Shown here one piece after another: positions 1 to 24,537 of a stretch of DNA of 32,000 nt. The DNA is taken from NCBI RefSeq assembly GCF_037902255.1, contig NZ_CP147990.1, forward strand, positions 3,900,001-3,932,000. Reading direction: 5' to 3'. The position numbers were made by a program, and so were the translations under genes. How positions within the stretch are numbered: position 1 is the stretch's first letter; each line of letters starts with the position of its first letter. The notes below the pieces were generated by a model. It was given only the letters and a program-made list of their open reading frames with translations, had not been told where the DNA came from and did not search any database. The DNA comes from Candidatus Electrothrix sp. GW3-4 (GTDB lineage: Bacteria; Desulfobacterota; Desulfobulbia; Desulfobulbales; Desulfobulbaceae).

Positions 1-250
1 CAAGCTCAGGCTCCTGCTCCAGCATGTCCACAGTAAAGCCCTCGGAGAGAAGGCTCTCGCCCTCAAAGTCCTTATCCTTGCCCGCCAGGATACGGAGCAA
101 GGTACTCTTTCCTGAGCCGTTCAGGCCCAGCACCCCGATCTTGGCGCCGTAGAAATAGGAGAGGGAGATATCTTTAATAATAACTTGATCTTTGTACTTT
201 TTACTGACCTTAATCATCGAATAGATGATCTTATTCGCTTCTTGTGCCAT
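1..250 (-). CDS. ettA: Energy-dependent translational throttle EttA (ABC-F ATPase); N-terminal 83 codons only, gene continues off the left edge
   Basis: Reverse-complement translation from the ATG at 250-248 gives MAQEANKIIYSMIKVSKKYKDQVIIKDISLSYFYGAKIGVLGLNGSGKSTLLRILAGKDKDFEGE... It has Walker A GLNGSGKST and is colinear with the E. coli EttA/YjjK N-terminus as I recall it. It is absent from the ORF track because the window edge truncates it. Confidence 0.85.
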   Translation of the reverse strand, partial: MAQEANKIIYSMIKVSKKYKDQVIIKDISLSYFYGAKIGVLGLNGSGKSTLLRILAGKDKDFEGESLLSEGFTVDMLEQEPEL

Positions 251-595
251 ATGCTCCGTTCTGTATTGAATGAGGGTATTGACCGCCTTGGGTCGCTCGA
301 ACTTGTTGTGCTCGTCCGGCTGGAACCAAGCGGCTGGAAGATTTGTTCAGCGTTACTATCTGTTCATAAACTGTATCTTGTTTTTTTGCGAAGGATTTCT
401 GCATGAATTTTGGGGGATATCCTTTGTTGTGGGATAGCACAGATCGCTGGCATTCATTGCTTGAATTTTCTAAGGACATGCGATAGATAAAGAGTTTTAG
501 CTATCGTTTCAACCAGTTTTCCCTCTCGTTCGGAGCCTTATCGCAGAGACATTTGATACGTTTTGCCTGTAACTTCCGAGAAAAGCAATGCTTTT

Positions 596-1125
596 TGTTT
601 GCAAATAAAAGGTTGTTTGTTATCAAGAGAAGGTTATTAGTAACAAACAAGGAGTTGTTTGTAGCTAACAGAAGGTTGTTTGTAATAAATAAGGAGTTGT
701 TTGTAGCTAACAGAAGGTTGTTGATAACCAACGAAGGAGTGTTTGTTAACAAGAGAAGGTTGTTTGTAACAAACAAGGAGCTGTTTGCTATAAACAGAAG
801 GTGTTTGATAACCAACGAAGGAGTGTTTGCTCCTAGCAAAAGATTGTTTGCTACCAACAAAAGGTTGTTGTTAATCAACGAAGGAGTGTTTGCTATCAAC
901 GGAAGGTGTTTGATAACCAACGAAGGAGTGTTTGCTATCAACGAAAGGTGTTTGATAACCAACGAGGGAATGTTTGCTCATGACAGAAGGTTGTCAGCTA
1001 TTAACAAAAGGTTCTTGGTAGCCAACAAGGGGTTGTTTACTCCTGATAGAAAGCTCTCAGCTATCAAGAAGAATATTTTGTTTAACAGCAAGAATCTATT
1101 GTTTGTCCGTAAAGGTGTGTTACTG
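596..1125. repeat. Degenerate tandem array of about 25 units of 21 bp (alternating 20/22 in places), organised as about 12 copies of a 42-bp higher-order unit. Consensus TGTTTG-yTAnC-AAC-rAAGG(AG)T.
   Basis: TGTTTG-like anchors occur at 614, 635, 656, 677, 698, 719, 740, 761, 782, 802, 824, 845, 866, 887, 907, 929, 949, 971, 992, 1013, 1034 and 1055. Near-identical 42-mers lie at 782-823, 887-928 and 929-970 (TGTTTGCTATCAACGGAAGGTGTTTGATAACCAACGAAGGAG). Units alternate ...AAGGT and ...AAGGAG endings. Many units are imperfect palindromes, for example TTGTTTGTAACAAACAA at 760-776. Confidence 0.9.
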
Positions 1126-1208
1126 AGTAAACACTAGCATAAAAAAACTCCGCTCACTAACAATATTGCACAGAAAAACAATATATTACCAAAGGGGCTT
1201 CGATTTAA

Positions 1209-3302
1209 ATGAATAAGTCTGGTTCAGGGTCAGCAACAAATGCAGGGATAGATTACCAGCAAAGAGTCTCTGCATTATTTCTAATAGCTTTACATTCTCA
1301 GTTCGACATCTCACAATTACTTAACATTAATGACGAATTAAATATTAAGTATGTTTCATACGAGACTGCAGAAAATGTAGATGATCTCAATATTATTTGC
1401 GATGACAACAAAATTTTATACATGCAAATTAAGCGCAAAATTGCGCTTTCCAAAAAAGACGGCTCTGAATTCCAAAAAGTAATTGAACAGTTTCTTTCTC
1501 AATATATCGCTGAACAAAAAATATCTGATCGGTTTCTTCTCATCACTACGTCAGACACATCAAAAAGTATTAAATATGATCTCAAAAAAATTTTTGACAG
1601 TATTAGGCTTAACGATACTGGATTTAAAGCGAACCCTTGCAATAATAACGAAGAAAAAACTTATTCAATCTTAGAAACAGTTTTTAATAACTCATATAAA
1701 AAACTGACCCAACATGAACCATCAAATAAAGATTTTGTTATATTTTGCAAGCAAGTATTCGTGTCTATTATTGATGTAGAAACCGATATGACAACAGAGA
1801 AAATAGCTGTCATGCTTTTGCACAGTGAAGGAATTAATATGCCATCACTGGTTTGGAACTACTTAGTATCCCAGAGTCTATATTATGCAACTAACAGATT
1901 ATCTTTAAACCGTGATGGTATAAATAACACTCTAGCAAAATATCAAGCCAAAAAGCCTACTCAGAAAGAATTGGAAATTCAATTAAATGAACTTTTGAAA
2001 CCGGTAATACTTAATGTTTCAGAGCTTGCAACAGGAAAGGATGTTTTCATAGTAGAGTCTTTTGTCGAAGGTCTTGATTACGCCATAGTTGAACTATTTA
2101 GATTCGATAGTAATGGAGAGAAAAGAGTAAAATTTGAGGACGACTATGTGCTATTAGGGGATAAAAAAGCAAAAGTTATTCGTCGTTTTTCCACAATGGT
2201 CGGCCTTCAAAGATATATGGAAGAAAACCAAGAATATTATAAAAATAAGAAAGTAGTAGTCCTTGAGTCGAGAGATATTGATACTGTTGAAGAAACCGAA
2301 GTGGCAAGAAAATATAAAGAATATTGCCATGAGCTACTCAACAAAAATACCACCCTTATCAATTGCATTCACTCTGGCAAAAGTTGCTTGTCAGCTTCAT
2401 GTTATTTCGTTGAAGTTGACTACCCAAACTATCCTCCTGCAATTGGCATGGTTCGAGAGGAATGCTTGTTGCCACTTGATCGAATTCTCGGTAAGCCAAT
2501 AATTCCGCAAGAAGATATTCGGTTCCCAACCGAAATAAACATATCGAGATGGATGAGTCTTCTCAATAAAGGTCAAGGGTTATTAAAATCATTACCTGAA
2601 GTCAAGAAAGATTTGAAATGTAAAGTGTTACAAGTGGGCTGGAATGAAGATAATCAAGTGTATGCTGAATACAACTATTGCATAAGAAAAAACTTGGAGG
2701 ATGGGAGTTCAGACTATCTCTGTTCCAGAGGAAAAATTCAACGTTTTTCTAAATATGAAGCCGATATTCAGGCAGATTGCCTTAACTCTGATATCTTAAA
2801 GAATAAAAACAATGATAATCGGCTTTGTGTGTCCTCGAAAAACAGGAGGGTTATATCTCGTCCTTTTTTAATGAAAATCAAAGAAAACGGTGAGGAAGTT
2901 CTGGAAGTCAGATCCTTTGAAGTCTGCAAGTATAGTCAACTGTTGGGAGATCTATATAATAATTGCGATAATTATTATGCCCCTCTCTGTTTTGTCATAC
3001 ACAAAGATACTGAACAAATATTTGTAATCGGCGATATAGTCCCTCTTATTTCAAACCCTTTCCAACTATATTTATTCATTGAAAATTGGGGGGAAGCAGG
3101 TTTCATATTTGATGACCATTCATTGTCTGTTATCCATAATGACTATGAATTTGATAAACATATGAGAGATATTATCAATGACAGCCTATTTCCAATAATT
3201 GATCCAAAGTTTACGTCTCAACAGGAATTGGAAGAAGGCATTGTTATTAGAGAAATAAATAAATTTATCGAAGAACAAAAAAATGCACAACCAGATGCTT
3301 AA
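1209..3302 (+). CDS. 697-aa protein with an N-terminal Cap4/DUF4297-like PD-(D/E)xK nuclease-type domain and a large unassigned C-terminal region; candidate defence effector or toxin
   Basis: This is a long uninterrupted ORF in very AT-rich DNA, where random ORFs should be short. The N-terminus reads GSATNAGIDYQQRVSALFLI...YETAENVDDLNIICDDNKILYMQIKRK. That gives a G-x-x-YQ opening followed by an E...DD...QxK arrangement, which is typical of Cap4-type dsDNA nuclease domains as I remember them. A Cys/His cluster follows: CHELLNKNTTLINCIHSGKSCLSASC. Residues ~240-697 have no motif I recognise. The function is an inference. Confidence 0.8.
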   Translation: MNKSGSGSATNAGIDYQQRVSALFLIALHSQFDISQLLNINDELNIKYVSYETAENVDDLNIICDDNKILYMQIKRKIALSKKDGSEFQKVIEQFLSQYIAEQKISDRFLLITTSDTSKSIKYDLKKIFDSIRLNDTGFKANPCNNNEEKTYSILETVFNNSYKKLTQHEPSNKDFVIFCKQVFVSIIDVETDMTTEKIAVMLLHSEGINMPSLVWNYLVSQSLYYATNRLSLNRDGINNTLAKYQAKKPTQKELEIQLNELLKPVILNVSELATGKDVFIVESFVEGLDYAIVELFRFDSNGEKRVKFEDDYVLLGDKKAKVIRRFSTMVGLQRYMEENQEYYKNKKVVVLESRDIDTVEETEVARKYKEYCHELLNKNTTLINCIHSGKSCLSASCYFVEVDYPNYPPAIGMVREECLLPLDRILGKPIIPQEDIRFPTEINISRWMSLLNKGQGLLKSLPEVKKDLKCKVLQVGWNEDNQVYAEYNYCIRKNLEDGSSDYLCSRGKIQRFSKYEADIQADCLNSDILKNKNNDNRLCVSSKNRRVISRPFLMKIKENGEEVLEVRSFEVCKYSQLLGDLYNNCDNYYAPLCFVIHKDTEQIFVIGDIVPLISNPFQLYLFIENWGEAGFIFDDHSLSVIHNDYEFDKHMRDIINDSLFPIIDPKFTSQQELEEGIVIREINKFIEEQKNAQPDA

Positions 3303-3495
3303 CTTGACTACAACCAATCCTTGGTTGCGCTGATGCGATCAGTTATGGCGGTGCAGCAGGTTAGCCACTCATGAATAAGTACCAATATTCGGTATGGTAA
3401 CAACATATGCAGAACAAGTCAATTCAGGCGACGACAAGAAAGCACTGATGCAGGTCGTTAGATATCGACAACCCCTCAAACAACGGAGCATTACA

Positions 3496-3936
3496 ATGGA
3501 CGACTACGAAAAATGGGAACAAGATTGCAAAAAGATCAAAAAAACGAACAAAGGCCTATTAAACGAATTTGAGGCATGGCTCAAAGCTTCCGGTCTCTCG
3601 GAAAAAACGATAAAGAAGCATCTTGAAAACGTTGACTTTTACCTCAATGAATATCTGCTGTACGAGGATGCAATTGAAGCAAAAGACGGTGCTGGCGATG
3701 TCGGTATGTTTCTGGGTTATTGGTTTATAAAAAAGGCAATGTGGGCAAGCAAATCAAGCATCAAGAGCAACGCAACAAGCCTGAAAAAGTTTTACACCTT
3801 TATGCATGAGAAAGGTTTGATAAAGAAAGAAGAACTGACAGATCTCAAACAAAGGATAAAAGAAGAGATGCCGGAATGGTTGGCAACCTTGGCCCGCTAT
3901 GATGACCCCTCAGTTGAAGATGTTTGGTTCGAGTAG
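3496..3936 (+). CDS. Stand-alone phage-integrase N-terminal SAM-like (core-binding) domain protein with no catalytic domain
   Basis: FEAWLKASGLSEKTIKKHLENVDFYLNEYL ... IKSNATSLKKFYTFMHEKGLI matches the two-helix-pair pattern of tyrosine-recombinase core-binding domains (GLSxxTIxxHLxxVxxF ... LKxFYxFxxxxGLI). I prefer the start at ATG 3496 because GGAG lies 7 nt upstream. The ORF track starts at 3394, which has no SD. No R..HxxR..Y catalytic domain follows. Confidence 0.6.
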   Translation: MDDYEKWEQDCKKIKKTNKGLLNEFEAWLKASGLSEKTIKKHLENVDFYLNEYLLYEDAIEAKDGAGDVGMFLGYWFIKKAMWASKSSIKSNATSLKKFYTFMHEKGLIKKEELTDLKQRIKEEMPEWLATLARYDDPSVEDVWFE

Positions 3937-4004
3937 AACTCATCAACAAGATCTGGACGAAACGCCTGTCCTGTTATCAACACCTTGTACAAAGTAGAAA
4001 AGAA

Positions 4005-4487
4005 ATGCCATACTCATTTTTTCATAGTCGTTTTCCTAAAGTTGCAGAGCGAGAAACCAGGTCAGTCACCGTGTATGATCCTTCAGAGTTTAATCTCCCA
4101 CCAGCAGATTATGCCTTTCTCGAAATGTTCTGTGACGAACCCGATTGTGACTGTCGTCGGGTATTTTTCACTGTAATATCTTCTCGTGAAGATGACGTTA
4201 AGGCGGTTATTTCCTGGGGGTGGGAAGACCAAGTTTTTTATACGAAGTGGATAAAGGATAGCGATCCTGATGTTATCAAGGAACTGATGGGCCCAATACT
4301 GAATATAATGAGTCCACAATCGGCCCAGGCCCCAGCTCTTCTCAAGCTCTTCCAAGAGGTATTACTCCCAGACACGGCCTATATCGAAAGAATAAAACGA
4401 CACTATGTCATGTTTCGTCAAACAGTTGACAAGAAGAGCAAAAAAAAGTTCCGCAGAAGGAAAGGGAAGATAAAAAGGATAAAATAA
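4005..4487 (+). CDS. Hypothetical protein with a CDEPDCDCRRV Cys motif and a poly-basic C-terminal tail
   Basis: The ORF is open from TTG 3924, which overlaps the previous gene. The first ATG is at 4005 (MPYSFFHSRFPKV...). The motif is YAFLEMFCDEPDCDCRRVFFTV, and the tail is KKSKKKFRRRKGKIKRIK. I recognise no family. The start is uncertain (3924 or 4005). Confidence 0.55.
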   Translation: MPYSFFHSRFPKVAERETRSVTVYDPSEFNLPPADYAFLEMFCDEPDCDCRRVFFTVISSREDDVKAVISWGWEDQVFYTKWIKDSDPDVIKELMGPILNIMSPQSAQAPALLKLFQEVLLPDTAYIERIKRHYVMFRQTVDKKSKKKFRRRKGKIKRIK

Positions 4488-4536
4488 GCAGTCACTTCAG
4501 CAGACAGGAAAAACGTTTACCCGGCAAAAAATCCCC

Positions 4537-4983
4537 ATGACTCCCCCATCATTTTCCGATCTCACCCTGGAGGACCTCCTCCCCCAACGCGGCGATATGC
4601 TGCTGATCCAGGAGGTCCTCGAAGTAGACAGAAGCGAAGCCCGTACCCTGTGCCGCCCCAAGCCTTCCTGGCCTATGGCCGATGCAAAGGGCGTCCCTCC
4701 CCTCATCCTGGTCGAGCTAGCTGCTCAGACCGCCGGGGTGTGCAACGGTTGGGACCGAATCCAGAGCAAAGGAAAAGACTCAGACCCGATGGGCTGGATC
4801 GTCGGGATCAAAAAAGCAGAGTTTTCCATTGACCATCTCCCCTTTGCCTGCGATATTATCAGCTGGGCAAAAAACACCTTCTGCTTTGACAATCTCCGGG
4901 AAGTGGCGTGCGAACAGCACATCGACGGCCAATTGATCAGCAGGATGACACTTCAGCTCTTTCAGGCAAAAACAGATGAGTAA
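4537..4983 (+). CDS. Hotdog-fold 3-hydroxyacyl-ACP dehydratase-like protein (FabA/FabZ-related, of the type found in aryl-polyene-like lipid clusters)
   Basis: LLPQRGDMLLIQEVLEVD...PPLILVELAAQTAGV is the typical LLPHRxPMLLxDxV...E.xAQ pattern of hotdog dehydratases. It overlaps the next gene by 8 nt (ATGAGTAA). Confidence 0.7.
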   Translation: MTPPSFSDLTLEDLLPQRGDMLLIQEVLEVDRSEARTLCRPKPSWPMADAKGVPPLILVELAAQTAGVCNGWDRIQSKGKDSDPMGWIVGIKKAEFSIDHLPFACDIISWAKNTFCFDNLREVACEQHIDGQLISRMTLQLFQAKTDE

Positions 4984-5719
4984 CGAACAGGCAAAAGAAC
5001 AGGAAACCGCCATCGTGACTGGCGGCAGCAAGGGAATCGGCAGGGCCATCTGCCTAGAACTGGCCCAAAACGGCTACTACGTTGTTATCAATTATATGGG
5101 CGATAAGAACGGGGCCGAGCAGACCCTGGTCCAGGTTGAAGAACAGGGCGGCCAGGGAGAAATCTGCCAATTCGATATCCGGGACCGGGAAAAGGTCGAA
5201 CAGATCATTGAGGATATCGCCCAACGACGGGGCAGCATTGATGTCCTGGTCAATAATGCAGGCATTATTGCCGACGGCCTTTTCATGATGATGAAGCCAG
5301 AAAACTGGGACGCTGTCCTTGATACCAGCCTGAACGGATTTTATAATATGACCCGTCCGGTCCTGGAAAAGATGGTGCGCAAACGCAAAGGCGCCATCAT
5401 CTCCATCTCCTCAGCCAGTTCCCTGGTGCCCAACAGGGGCCAAGCCAATTATGCCGCTGCCAAGGCAGGCTTGAACGCGGCCAGCAGAACCGTAGCCACC
5501 GAGGTAGCCCGCCTGGGTATTCGGGTCAATGTGGTTGCCCCAGGCCTCATTGAAACGGATATGATCCAGGAGGTGCCTAAGGACCATATCAAGACCATGA
5601 TCCCTATGGCCCGGATCGGCAGACCAGAGGAAGTTGCCCAGGTCGTCAGTTTTCTCTGCTCAGATGCGGCTTCCTATGTGACCGGTCAGGTCATCTCGGT
5701 CAACGGAGGCATGATCTAG
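4976..5719 (+). CDS. fabG: 3-oxoacyl-ACP reductase (SDR family, FabG-like)
   Basis: It has TGGSKGIGRAI (TGxxxGIG), NNAG, a Ser...YAAAKAG catalytic triad context and the PGLIETDM motif. Length is 247 aa. Confidence 0.9.
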   Translation: MSNEQAKEQETAIVTGGSKGIGRAICLELAQNGYYVVINYMGDKNGAEQTLVQVEEQGGQGEICQFDIRDREKVEQIIEDIAQRRGSIDVLVNNAGIIADGLFMMMKPENWDAVLDTSLNGFYNMTRPVLEKMVRKRKGAIISISSASSLVPNRGQANYAAAKAGLNAASRTVATEVARLGIRVNVVAPGLIETDMIQEVPKDHIKTMIPMARIGRPEEVAQVVSFLCSDAASYVTGQVISVNGGMI

Positions 5720-7698: not shown

Positions 7699-10122
7699 TT
7701 ACTCTATCTTATTACATTGCGACAAACATTGACTCATACATTTTTCAGGTCGGTCTGTACATTTATTTCCACAGTATTCTTGACAACATACCCGTTTATC
7801 AAGACCGCTTGTCAGCGGATCTCTCAATTGCAGCACGTTAGTGGCTCTGGTAATTGTTGCAGCACAAATATTCAGCTGCCCCTGCCCTTTTCCAGAACGA
7901 AACTCGGAACCGGAAACAGTAACTGTTTCCCCAACTTCAAAATGAAAGACTTCTCGACATTGCTTGATCAAATTCTCGGGAAATACATGGATAACATAGG
8001 AGCCCGATGAGGTCTCTACGTCAAGATGTAATCCGCTCTGCTTGGTCCAAGGTGGAGATTTTATTGCAACCTTCCTGATCTGCCCGCTAATCTCCGTTAG
8101 GGGCGTCTTCCATGGTTGATTGCATGAGGATTCGCGTACTGATTCACTTATTGATTCACTTATTGGTTGAACCTGAACGGCTCCCTGGCCTTCCCCGGCA
8201 TCTGAAGGCTGAACCTTTTCTTCACCATCTTCTGCTGAAGAAGGAGCGACCGGAAGAGAAGTTTCGACCTCTTCCGTTTCCTCAGCCTGAGACGCAAGCG
8301 GACTCATCTCATCTGAGGAAACATTTTTTTCAAGTGGTGGTGTGACCTCTGCTGTTGTGACCTTATCCCCCTTTTCGATCACTGCGGGCTGATCTGCCTC
8401 AGGAATGGCAGGCAGGGAAGGAGCGCCCTCCTTCTCTTCACTGGTCTGCATCTCCGCTTGAGCAACAGCCTCACCAGCAGGCAGCTTTTCCCCTGCTTCT
8501 GCTTCAGATACACTGGCGTTTTCCCCGTTCCCAGTTGTTAGAGATTCAGGTTGGAACTTCTGCCCAGTAACCTCAGATGCGGGGATGGAAGGTACGACAG
8601 GAGCAGGGTCTTTCTCCGCACGGCCCTGTATCTCTGGTTGAGATGTCTCATAAGATGCCGTAACACTCTCTCCATCCCCTGTCGATTCTGTCGATTGGGG
8701 CTCATCCTGAACCTCTTGCTCCTTCTTCTCGACGACAGCTCTGGAGGTCGTGGCAGGAGCCATCGCTTTTGTTTCACTCCGCTGAGGAGTAGCTTGCTCA
8801 GTTTTGCTGACAGCAACCTTCTTCTTGGCCTTGAGCACTCTTATCTCATGAAGAGCCGAATTCTCATGACCAGATTCTTCAGGTTCCTCAGGAAGGGGCA
8901 GAATTTTCTCGTCAACCTCCCTCACTGGGGGAGAAACGACAGAGGCAGGGACAGCTCCTCCTGTTTCTACGCTATGACGTCCCAATGCTTCATCAATATC
9001 ATCAGCAAGGAGGTCTCCTTCTTTTTCTTCCTGCTCAGACGATACATATCTGAAATCAAGGTCTGTCAACTGCCGGGAATAACGCAGGCGGGCCAATACC
9101 CTGCCCTGCCGATCATACAGGCTCAGAATATCACCGCTGATGGTATATCTTCGCGTCGTATCCAAGGCCTGCAAGAAGGCATCCTCCACCTCCATCCCAA
9201 CAGGGCAGGCCATACGGGTTGATGCAATCCGACTGAAGACAAAATCATTATCAGCAAAAAGCCAGCTTCCGCTAAAATTATTACAGCCTGCAAAGCCCTG
9301 AATCAGCTGTTCACCACCTTGGACCTTCAAAAAAGGTGGTTTGCTCACACTCTCCGGCTCCAGCGACTCTCCACCTATCTCTGTCAAATACCACCTATTA
9401 TTTAAAATCGTTGCAATACGGCGCCCTTTCCCCTTACAGAAATGGTATGGATCAATATGAACGGAACGAACCGCAATCAGACGATCTCCCCGACCTGCTT
9501 GAGAGGAAAGGCGAATATCCAGAGTTACAAAAAGCGATTCTGCCCGACCATGCAAGATATCTTGATACGCCTGCTCTACCTCGGCAGCTCTCCCCCTGGT
9601 GACGAGAGGGAACCTCGCCCCACTCAGGCATTCCCGAAAGACCCCACGACCGCGTTTGCGGGTGTACATCCCCTGCATACGCACTATCCCCTCATAGCGG
9701 GGCTCTGTATGCGTCAAGGTAAAGTCATAGCGAACAAGGGAGGGCATCATTCCGCCGGAGACCTTGATAAGCTTCAGGGTTTGCTGCCCTGTAACCGCCA
9801 AGATCCGGCTCGCCTTGTCATAACTGGTCAAACGAAGAAGTTTCTTTGCTTCGCTATATCTCCATACGCCGATCTCTGCCTGAGTCACCTTACGACCAGA
9901 TGCATTTCTTGCCATCCTTTCCATCTGCAAAAAATACATACCATCGGGCCGCAGCACCAACTCAAACGATGTCGAAGGACATCGCTTCAGGTCGAGATCA
10001 GCCCGAAAGACAGCAGGAAGAGGATGAACGAACGTTCTGTCCTTCAGAACATGCTTTTGTTGCGGAGCACATCCTGCCAGCAACAGGACCAAGAGAGAAA
10101 AAAGGCGGAGATATGTACGCAT
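7699..10122 (-). CDS. Large composite lipoprotein: NlpE-N-like region, META (HslJ-like) domain, ~285-aa acidic low-complexity linker, C-terminal OB-like domain and a Cys-rich tail
   Basis: The lipobox is LLLAGC (MRTYLRLFSLLVLLLAGCAPQQ). The META-type segment reads NNRWYLTEIGG...FLKVQGGEQLIQGFAGCNNFSGSW...TRMACP...EDAFLQALDTTRRYTISGDILSLYD. An E/P/S/T/A-rich stretch covers residues ~355-640. The C-terminus has GLHLDVETSSGSYVIHVFPE...VGETVTVSGSEF and ends in CCQEYCGNKCTDRPEKCMSQCLSQC. Confidence 0.8.
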   Translation of the reverse strand: MRTYLRLFSLLVLLLAGCAPQQKHVLKDRTFVHPLPAVFRADLDLKRCPSTSFELVLRPDGMYFLQMERMARNASGRKVTQAEIGVWRYSEAKKLLRLTSYDKASRILAVTGQQTLKLIKVSGGMMPSLVRYDFTLTHTEPRYEGIVRMQGMYTRKRGRGVFRECLSGARFPLVTRGRAAEVEQAYQDILHGRAESLFVTLDIRLSSQAGRGDRLIAVRSVHIDPYHFCKGKGRRIATILNNRWYLTEIGGESLEPESVSKPPFLKVQGGEQLIQGFAGCNNFSGSWLFADNDFVFSRIASTRMACPVGMEVEDAFLQALDTTRRYTISGDILSLYDRQGRVLARLRYSRQLTDLDFRYVSSEQEEKEGDLLADDIDEALGRHSVETGGAVPASVVSPPVREVDEKILPLPEEPEESGHENSALHEIRVLKAKKKVAVSKTEQATPQRSETKAMAPATTSRAVVEKKEQEVQDEPQSTESTGDGESVTASYETSQPEIQGRAEKDPAPVVPSIPASEVTGQKFQPESLTTGNGENASVSEAEAGEKLPAGEAVAQAEMQTSEEKEGAPSLPAIPEADQPAVIEKGDKVTTAEVTPPLEKNVSSDEMSPLASQAEETEEVETSLPVAPSSAEDGEEKVQPSDAGEGQGAVQVQPISESISESVRESSCNQPWKTPLTEISGQIRKVAIKSPPWTKQSGLHLDVETSSGSYVIHVFPENLIKQCREVFHFEVGETVTVSGSEFRSGKGQGQLNICAATITRATNVLQLRDPLTSGLDKRVCCQEYCGNKCTDRPEKCMSQCLSQCNKIE

Positions 10123-24450: not shown

Positions 24451-24537
24451 TGGTGCCGAAGGGGAGAGTCGAACTCCCACGAGCGTACGCCCACTAGACC
24501 CTGAACCTAGCGCGTCTACCAATTCCGCCACTTCGGC
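24451..24537 (-). tRNA. tRNA-Leu (anticodon CAG), type II with a long variable arm, CCA encoded
   Basis: The reverse complement is GCCGAAGTGGCGGAATTGGTAGACGCGCTAGGTTCAGGGTCTAGTGGGCGTACGCTCGTGGGAGTTCGACTCTCCCCTTCGGCACCA. The acceptor stem is GCCGAAG/CTTCGGC. The anticodon stem is CTAGG/TCTAG with loop TTCAGGG. The variable arm is 15 nt. The T-arm is GGGAG-TTCGACT-CTCCC. Confidence 0.93.

Follow-up and report, generated by a model that had tools for sequence, protein, structure and literature searches.

Introduction

Cap4-type nucleases are a recurring executioner of bacterial immunity, and are found in CBASS, Avs, Lamassu and HerA-DUF4297. To our knowledge, every characterised case is controlled by an identifiable sensor or partner, i.e. 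a SAVED domain, a STAND nucleoside triphosphatase (NTPase), an SMC protein or HerA. The current study concerns a gene for a protein of 697 amino acids (aa) in a stretch of 32,000 nucleotides (nt) from the cable bacterium Candidatus Electrothrix sp. GW3-4 (contig NZ_CP147990.1); this whole stretch is called the window below. The database entry for exactly this protein is WP_339135161.1, "hypothetical protein WGN25_17210". By fold and profile, residues 1-245 are a Cap4/DUF4297-type PD-(D/E)xK nuclease of predicted activity, and residues 277-690 are a conserved module with no known match in the libraries searched. The executioner domain and the logic are familiar, and the putative sensor module joined to them appears to be undescribed. 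We consider it fairly probable that the product is a stand-alone, single-chain immune protein of the abortive infection type, in which an effector and a sensor or switch work together without an NTPase.

The C-terminal domains that accompany Cap4-type heads are diverse, and assembly, driven by HerA in the case of DUF4297, activates the heads (10.1101/2024.10.24.620088). The Cap4 heads of Avs3 and Avs7 tetramerise, and sensor modules are common to STAND proteins and to single proteins without an NTPase such as Dsr1 (PMC13581612). With CBASS Cap4 (6vm6, 6wan) the window protein has in common the fold of the head, a large and presumably regulatory C-terminal region and, probably, activation by self-association. 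However, the C-terminus of Cap4 is a SAVED domain, whereas the window protein had no SAVED or CARF match; Cap4 adjoins a CD-NTase, whereas the window gene has neither a CD-NTase nor a conserved partner; and the active site Glu of Cap4 is a Gln in the window protein.

The head is also common to Avs3, Avs7 and PDC-M54A (Avs3 is the best structural match and PDC-M54A the best profile match), as is the logic of effector and sensor in a single chain. Unlike these proteins, which possess a STAND NTPase and a repeat sensor, the window protein showed no NTPase, TPR or WD40, is only 697 aa long and has an unrelated module. Homology of the head to Lamassu LmuA and HerA-DUF4297 was seen at the level of the fold (9nxx, 9ux7, 9c1m) and, for LmuA, of the profile. 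LmuA needs the SMC-like LmuB and DUF4297 needs HerA, whereas the window family has no conserved ATPase neighbour; an AAA_15/21 gene beside the copy in Candidatus Electrothrix marina (E. marina) is absent from the window and from the other loci.

In operating logic the closest analogues are Shedu SduA and Dsr1, in which a single polypeptide carries an enzymatic effector and a sensing region without an NTPase; Shedu is a single-chain precedent of this kind. Their effectors (a DUF4263 nuclease in Shedu, SIR2 in Dsr1) and sensor folds are different, and no similarity to the module was detected in sequence or fold. Mrr-type Type IV enzymes have the D...QxK variant (PMC11037411) and encoding by a single gene in common with the window protein, but consist of Mrr_cat and an N-terminal winged-helix reader, for which the window protein had no Pfam or NCBIfam match, and the fold neighbours of its head are of Cap4 type.

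The family lacks the features that define CBASS Cap4, Avs/PDC-M54, Lamassu, HerA-DUF4297 and Mrr. A literature search found no published description of the head plus module architecture, and a domain-centric discovery screen excluded single-gene systems by design (PMC13069673).

The nuclease head

An earlier note, made from the DNA sequence of the window, had proposed a Cap4-type nuclease head on the basis of a few motifs, and these are present in the open reading frame (ORF) as claimed: GIDYQQ at residues 13-18, E52, D58-D59 and Q73-x-K75. Family alignments of 32 and 75 members were made, and the motifs are conserved in both. In the 74 rows of the larger alignment that include these positions, no substitution was seen at D58, D59, Q73, K75 or R76, and E52 was Glu in 73 and Gln in one. 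G13, Q17 and R19 were present in 73 of the 75 members. Conservation of this degree greatly exceeds what chance would give.

The full-length AlphaFold2 model, built on the 75-sequence alignment, had a mean predicted local distance difference test (pLDDT) value of 86.3 and a predicted template modelling score (pTM) of 0.53. Strands were modelled at residues 46-51, 60-64 and 69-74. E52 follows strand 1, D58 and D59 lie just ahead of strand 2, and strand 3 contains Q73-x-K75. As modelled, this is the arrangement that characterises the PD-(D/E)xK superfamily (an alpha/beta core like that of restriction endonucleases, an Asp where strand 2 begins, and (D/E/Q)-x-K within strand 3).

All significant matches of the full-length model in a Foldseek search of the PDB were heads of Cap4/DUF4297 type. 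The top match was Avs3 (8dgc_A, E 7.4e-6), and the others were Cap4 of A. baumannii (6wan, 6vm6 and 6wam, E 4e-5 to 2.5e-4; 6wan_D 3.9e-5), LmuA (9nxx, 9ux7 and 9uxl; 9nxx_D 1.3e-4) and HerA-DUF4297 (9c1m_G, 3.2e-4). The probabilities of these matches were 0.97-1.0, and the alignments spanned 253-288 columns for Avs3, Cap4 and LmuA and 415 for 9c1m_G. NucS (2vld) and EcoO109I were weaker matches.

The PADLOC profile PDC-M54A, which stands for a candidate defence protein, matched residues 5-244 with an E value of 1e-27, over profile positions 2-259 of 1657 only, and was matched by all 32 family members tested. The LmuA model was matched by ten of the 32 members (best 5.6e-7), in an alignment covering residues ~8-240. 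One member matched the CBASS models "Effector Endonuclease" and "SAVED_PDDEXK" over residues ~9-107, in register with the starts of these profiles. In Pfam and NCBIfam nothing significant was found for the window protein, and there was no match to Pfam PF14130 at E<=1. The earlier note had suggested a profile search as a check, with Pfam as the library; the profile similarity was found in PADLOC. Because Pfam Cap4_nuclease did not reach significance, the Cap4 assignment rests on fold and profile evidence, and not on Pfam membership; the Foldseek and PADLOC results, together with the near-invariant putative catalytic residues, bear out the head that had been proposed.

In the third motif a Gln (Q73) stands in place of the acidic residue, giving D...QxK; the active-site residues of DUF4297 are D41/E59/K61 (10.1101/2024.10.24.620088). 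A "PD-QXK" site is a recognised variant of Mrr-type restriction nucleases (PMC11037411), and the Gln is therefore no argument for an inactive domain. The same head subfamily (GI[DE][YF]QQR, QxKR) was also found at the N-terminus of a Micromonospora protein with NB-ARC and WD40 domains, and in front of a TIR-like segment and a P-loop NTPase in a protein on an IMG/VR contig (table 1), indicating that this head is a standard effector of STAND-type immune receptors.

The C-terminal module

The module consists of about four sub-regions (residues 277-380, 381-432, 440-588 and 589-690). When modelled alone it was compact and of alpha/beta type, with a pLDDT of 88.9 and a pTM of 0.76. The poorly conserved helical linker in front of it and the full-length pTM suggest a flexible junction between head and module. 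Mean pairwise identity was 42% in the head, 36% in the module and 22% in the linker, and about 20 positions of the C-terminal region were invariant in the family alignments. The divergence of the head and that of the module co-vary tightly (r = 0.93).

No significant match to the module was found in Pfam, NCBIfam or PHROGs, and in PADLOC there was only noise, located in the head. Among PDB structures, which include SAVED and CARF proteins, the best Foldseek match had an E value of 0.33 and a probability of 0.03, and the viral structures of BFVD gave no match. The description of the C-terminus as unrecognisable, made in the earlier note, therefore still applies in Pfam, NCBIfam, PADLOC, PHROGs, PDB and BFVD after the structural model and the Foldseek check that it called for. 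Sequence and profile matches in the PDB to Hha (E 0.1) and to the uncharacterised 5cqv (E 0.026, with an unconvincing alignment) were regarded as noise. PADLOC "CARF+PIN" matches in three members were also rejected; they fall within the head (residues 124-189), where no stretch exceeded the threshold.

Comparison of the four sub-regions with each other and with the head by hhalign gave probabilities of at most 1.1%, and no internal duplication like that of SAVED was seen. An NTPase was not detected either: there was no Pfam match to NB-ARC or NACHT, and a Walker A-like string occurred in only two of the 75 members, at a site that is not conserved. The net charge of the module is negative: the averages are -5 for sub-region A and -7.5 for sub-region C, the latter reaching -13 in the window protein.

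A cluster of Cys and His residues had been pointed out in this part of the protein. The cluster exists, but its residue numbers had been given two too low, the correct positions being C373, H374, C386, H388, C393, C398 and C419. The many scattered Cys that had also been mentioned are mostly not conserved; the only conserved ones in the module are C386, C389, C419 and C491. The family motif, C386-x2-C389...H416-x2-C419, was found in 70 of the 75 members. At two of the canonical ligand positions the window protein carries S389 and R416 instead; it belongs to a clade of five Electrothrix/Desulfobulbales members that have S389 together with R or L at 416, and C393 and C398 occur in these five only. 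The candidate ligands in the window protein are C386, C393, C398 and C419. So perfect a covariation suggests an exchange of ligands by which a structural metal site would be preserved.

Exchange of the effector head

A profile of the C-terminal module, compared with 1.84 billion representatives, matched 346 clusters at E<=1e-3, and 226 of these at E<=1e-30, each cluster being a representative at 50% identity. The heads were inspected in 136 of the best 150 of the 346 representatives. A Cap4-type head was present in 105 of the 136, and about a dozen were full-length proteins with another head. When ten of these other-headed proteins were tested, nine had a Peptidase_C14 caspase domain above the Pfam threshold, and the caspase heads retain the catalytic dyad in GHG and DSCxSG. 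No third effector head was found among the 136, the remainder being fragments. A word-indexed profile search returned only 18 proteins, all of them nuclease-headed.

The modules behind the caspase heads have kept the invariant residues R298, F299, R326, C386, C389, E402, G413, H416 and C419, and further R425, W448, P592, W627, D645 and P666. Since the module remains intact whether the fused effector is a DNase or a protease, it is best understood as a candidate sensor or switch, and not as a domain that targets the substrate. The suggestion of the earlier note that the C-terminal part could be a novel sensor or regulatory module fits with its fusion to a caspase as an alternative effector.

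A search with one caspase-headed member detected ~90 full-length caspase-headed clusters, mostly from Bacteroidota, which are annotated only as "caspase family protein". With these results, several hundred proteins annotated as "hypothetical" or "caspase family" in more than ten phyla, those of cable bacteria included, gain a functional lead.

Distribution of the family

The protein had been called an orphan, which is wrong. One search alone detected 77 near-full-length homologues with 26-93% identity, from Thermodesulfobacteriota, Bacteroidota, Bacillota and Campylobacterota, none of which had a Pfam domain or an informative name. In addition to the 346 module clusters, a scan in which each GTDB species was represented by one genome gave 58 loci, which added Gamma-, Beta- and Alphaproteobacteria, Cyanobacteria, Actinomycetota and Chloroflexota. 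The distribution is patchy, over more than ten phyla. The family was found on none of 50,697 phage records, its sole match in IMG/VR was one contig carrying the head alone, without the module, and one full-length copy lies on a plasmid, in Agrobacterium.

The base composition of the window gene is 33.8% GC, with 29.7% GC at third codon positions (GC3). Against values of ~55% GC and ~66% GC3 in the biosynthetic genes that come next, 50% GC in the remainder of the window and ~50% in the genome, the gene is compositionally foreign. The E. marina copy lies in a different neighbourhood. It has 94% DNA identity to the window copy only over a stretch that begins 24 nt ahead of the start codon and ends ~27 nt short of the stop codon. 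The DNA homology between the two Electrothrix genomes ends at the ends of the ORF, without element termini. The foreign GC content, the differing loci in Electrothrix and the patchy distribution over more than ten phyla show that the family is horizontally mobile.

Some members differ in length from the window protein. Five proteins of ~762-773 aa (P0033, P0038, P0041, P0044 and P0053) continue for ~70 aa past the module (FKGDKVKI...FVVFQP...), and two of ~870 aa (P0028 and P0036) for ~170 aa, with a final segment containing ISFPNNDAGQEASQWW. Neither the ~70-aa nor the ~170-aa extension had a Pfam match. Three ORFs of 150-318 aa consist of the head only (L056, L057 and L064, from Verrucomicrobiae, Saprospiraceae and Ktedonobacter, with 40-47% identity to the window protein), and may be truncated pseudogenes or stand-alone heads.

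Genomic context

The flanking ORFs of 51 loci (512 ORFs, the window included) were clustered, and no neighbour family occurred at more than three loci. The few families that recurred were housekeeping genes several kb away. As no neighbour family is conserved across the 51 loci, the gene stands alone. The absence of a cyclase, a CARF or SAVED protein and a partner ATPase, which had been remarked on before, was confirmed for the genes next to it in the window.

Eleven contexts with precomputed Pfam annotation were inspected by hand, and known defence genes were found within ~8 kb in seven of them. Neighbour sets of the nuclease form were McrBC with HNH and DUF1016; SIR2 with DUF87 and a reverse transcriptase; RelA_SpoT with a 2025-aa NACHT protein; OLD-TOPRIM with nSTAND3 and HipA; and, in E. 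marina, an AAA_15/21 ATPase with a PIN/NTP_transf pair. Those of the caspase form were DarT-Macro with SLATT and an SLFN-type helicase, and type I restriction-modification (R-M) with GmrSD and a reverse transcriptase. Transposases are adjacent to the gene in Draconibacterium.

In E. marina, PIN and nucleotidyltransferase genes precede the gene (L001 10148-12305, 93% identical), and behind it come an SMC_N/AAA_15/AAA_21 ATPase of 432 aa and two small ORFs of 87 and 198 aa. None of these neighbours is present in the window, and the set is probably a separate defence or toxin-antitoxin cluster.

Proposed mechanism and alternative explanations

The following scheme combines nuclease activity, metal binding, sensing, activation by oligomerisation and anti-phage function, all of which we infer. 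The effector would be the N-terminal 245 residues, acting as a DNA endonuclease with the active site D58...Q73-x-K75. The module, probably stabilised by a metal, would hold the nuclease inactive until an infection cue is detected. Once triggered, it would drive self-association and thereby bring the nuclease heads (or the caspase heads) together in an active oligomer, and the assembled heads would destroy DNA, or in the caspase form cleave proteins, so that the infection is aborted. Activation by self-association is proposed because Cap4-type heads are activated in this way in CBASS Cap4, where a ligand drives oligomerisation, in Avs3 and Avs7, and in HerA-DUF4297.

The more specific proposal is that the ~415-residue module is an unrecognised, NTPase-independent immune sensor or switch. 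The module would respond to an infection cue by direct detection and turn on the death effector that it is fused to, a Cap4-type nuclease in most lineages and a caspase-like protease in many Bacteroidota. This proposal is put forward tentatively, as plausible and a little short of probable. If it is true, the proteins would be a new family of single-chain bacterial immune receptors with a fold of their own and a conserved Cys/His metal site. If the protein acts in defence, it would also offer a new sensing domain, whose trigger could be found by phage escaper genetics, and a minimal system for the study of nuclease and protease switching without nucleotide hydrolysis or second messengers.

Several points weigh against this interpretation. 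With a mean pairwise identity of 36% the module is well conserved, which is unusual for sensors of fast-evolving phage proteins. Pfam Cap4_nuclease remained below significance and was matched by only four of the 32 members (best E 0.032). The precedent for QxK comes from Mrr-type enzymes, and the Cap4-type head that has it here is at present a predicted nuclease. The clade of the window protein lacks two of the four canonical Cys/His ligands. The suggested role in defence derives from guilt by association in the eleven contexts inspected by hand; four of these had no defence neighbours, and the window itself has no known defence genes, only an ABC-ATPase gene upstream and two small ORFs downstream.

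Alternatively, the module may bind a nucleotide signal from a cyclase or TIR protein encoded elsewhere, leading to oligomerisation and DNA cleavage as in CBASS Cap4, which uses the same class of head. Swapping between nucleases and caspase-like proteases is also established for SAVED and Thoeris-type receptors, and a small conserved ligand would agree with the good conservation of the module, in which many Arg, Asp and Glu residues are invariant. For Thoeris, a type IV caspase is cited in PMC13069673. Activation by a second messenger is nevertheless judged unlikely: no cyclase, TIR or other neighbour was conserved across the 51 loci, the module did not match SAVED or CARF structures although Cap4 and other SAVED proteins are in the PDB library, and it lacks the internal duplication expected of tandem CARF-like halves. 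The marginal PADLOC "CARF" matches fall in the head (124-189), none of them above threshold. The conservation of the module, combined with its acidity, argues mildly against a DNA reader as well as against a binder of fast-evolving phage proteins. The first of these would apply to a modification- or structure-dependent restriction endonuclease like those of Type IV, in which some feature of foreign DNA would be recognised by the module, which would place the PD-QxK nuclease on it. Such an enzyme would agree with the D...QxK site, a variant of Mrr-type nucleases (PMC11037411), with a single gene that often lies beside R-M, McrBC or GmrSD genes, and with a Cys/His knuckle that could be a DNA-binding zinc element. 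It is, however, hard to see why the same module, with the same invariants, should occur on caspase-like proteases, where a DNA-positioning domain makes little sense. Moreover, the module is net acidic, no SRA, PUA, YTH, winged helix or DUF3427 match was obtained in Pfam or the PDB, and the fold neighbours of the head are all immune effectors activated by assembly, and not Mrr, so that this explanation too has little probability.

The protein could also have no role in immunity, being instead a nuclease of a mobile element (for homing, integration or exclusion) or a factor of DNA repair or recombination, with defence neighbours that reflect shared integration hotspots. The foreign GC content and variable locus would be expected in this case, and the transposases in Draconibacterium, the recombinase-like SAM-domain ORF downstream in the window and the four contexts without defence genes point the same way. 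Against this stand the absence of the family from phage records, an IMG/VR match limited to the head, a single full-length plasmid copy, the lack of any mobile-element gene conserved beside the family, and the homology between the Electrothrix genomes, which stops at the ORF ends without element termini. The patchy distribution argues against a housekeeping role, and a sister family with caspase heads is difficult to reconcile with a DNA transaction, which makes a function of this kind very improbable.

Other features of the window

The coordinates of the features are collected in table 1. The first of the two small ORFs downstream of the nuclease gene matched Phage_int_SAM_5, the core-binding domain of tyrosine recombinases (E 1e-5), and lacks a catalytic domain, and the second had no match in the family libraries searched. 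Their GC contents (41-42%) are below the genome average. PHROGs had no match for either of them or for the 697-aa protein. Both were rejected as parts of the system, as neither recurs beside homologues.

Table 1. Coordinates of the nuclease gene, its parts and neighbours in the window, and of two related proteins at other loci (locus handle given with the position).
Feature	Position	Strand	Basis or remark
Complete ORF with ATG start, 697 aa	1209..3302	+	Open-reading-frame list; WP_339135161.1, hypothetical protein
Cap4/DUF4297-type PD-(D/E)xK nuclease head (predicted), residues 1-245	1209..1943	+	Foldseek, PADLOC; alpha/beta core with helical insert
N-terminal helix motif of the head subfamily, G13-I-D-Y-Q-Q-R19	1245..1265	+	G13, Q17 and R19 in 73/75
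Putative active site, E52, D58-D59, Q73-x-K75-R76	1362..1436	+	Alignment and model strands; D...QxK variant; putative roles
Helical linker, residues 246-276	1944..2036	+	22% mean pairwise identity; pLDDT ~60-75
Conserved C-terminal module, residues 277-690	2037..3278	+	Separate model; family-library and fold searches
Cys/His cluster, residues 386-419	2364..2465	+	75-sequence alignment; predicted metal binding
ABC-ATPase gene fragment	1-~250	-	Upstream of the 697-aa gene
Small ORF, 180 aa	3394-3936	+	Directly downstream; N-terminal SAM-like core-binding domain only
Small ORF, 187 aa	3924-4487	+	Overlaps the 3394-3936 ORF; CDEPDCDC motif
Head + NB-ARC + WD40 ORF, 1455 aa (scanned as 1445 aa)	L062 5968-10335		Micromonospora
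Head + TIR-like segment + P-loop NTPase + multi-pass transmembrane C-terminus, 1468 aa	L077 5001-9407		IMG/VR contig

Upstream of the gene, at positions 591-1095, ~23 units of 21 bp are arranged head to tail in exact register, with the consensus GTTGTTTG(T/C)TA(A/T)CAAC(A/G)(A/G)AAG. Many of them contain an 8-bp palindrome, TTGTTTGT/ACAAACAA. Two subtypes of the unit alternate, giving a period of 42 bp, and the GC content of the array is 36.8%. The array lies between the ABC-ATPase gene fragment on the minus strand and the nuclease gene, and contains spurious long ORFs on both strands. It was not found at the E. marina locus or at 55 other family loci, and was rejected as part of the system because it does not recur beside homologues. 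It had no Rfam match, and Rfam gave nothing in positions 1-5000 of the window. An array of phased protein-binding sites is one possibility.

The sole tRNA gene of the window, a tRNA-Leu (CAG) at 24451-24537 on the minus strand, lies far from the low-GC island and is therefore not its integration site. An ORF of 807 aa at 7699-10122 on the minus strand has a lipoprotein-like N-terminus, followed by a long, acidic middle part of low complexity that is rich in Glu, Pro, Ser and Ala.

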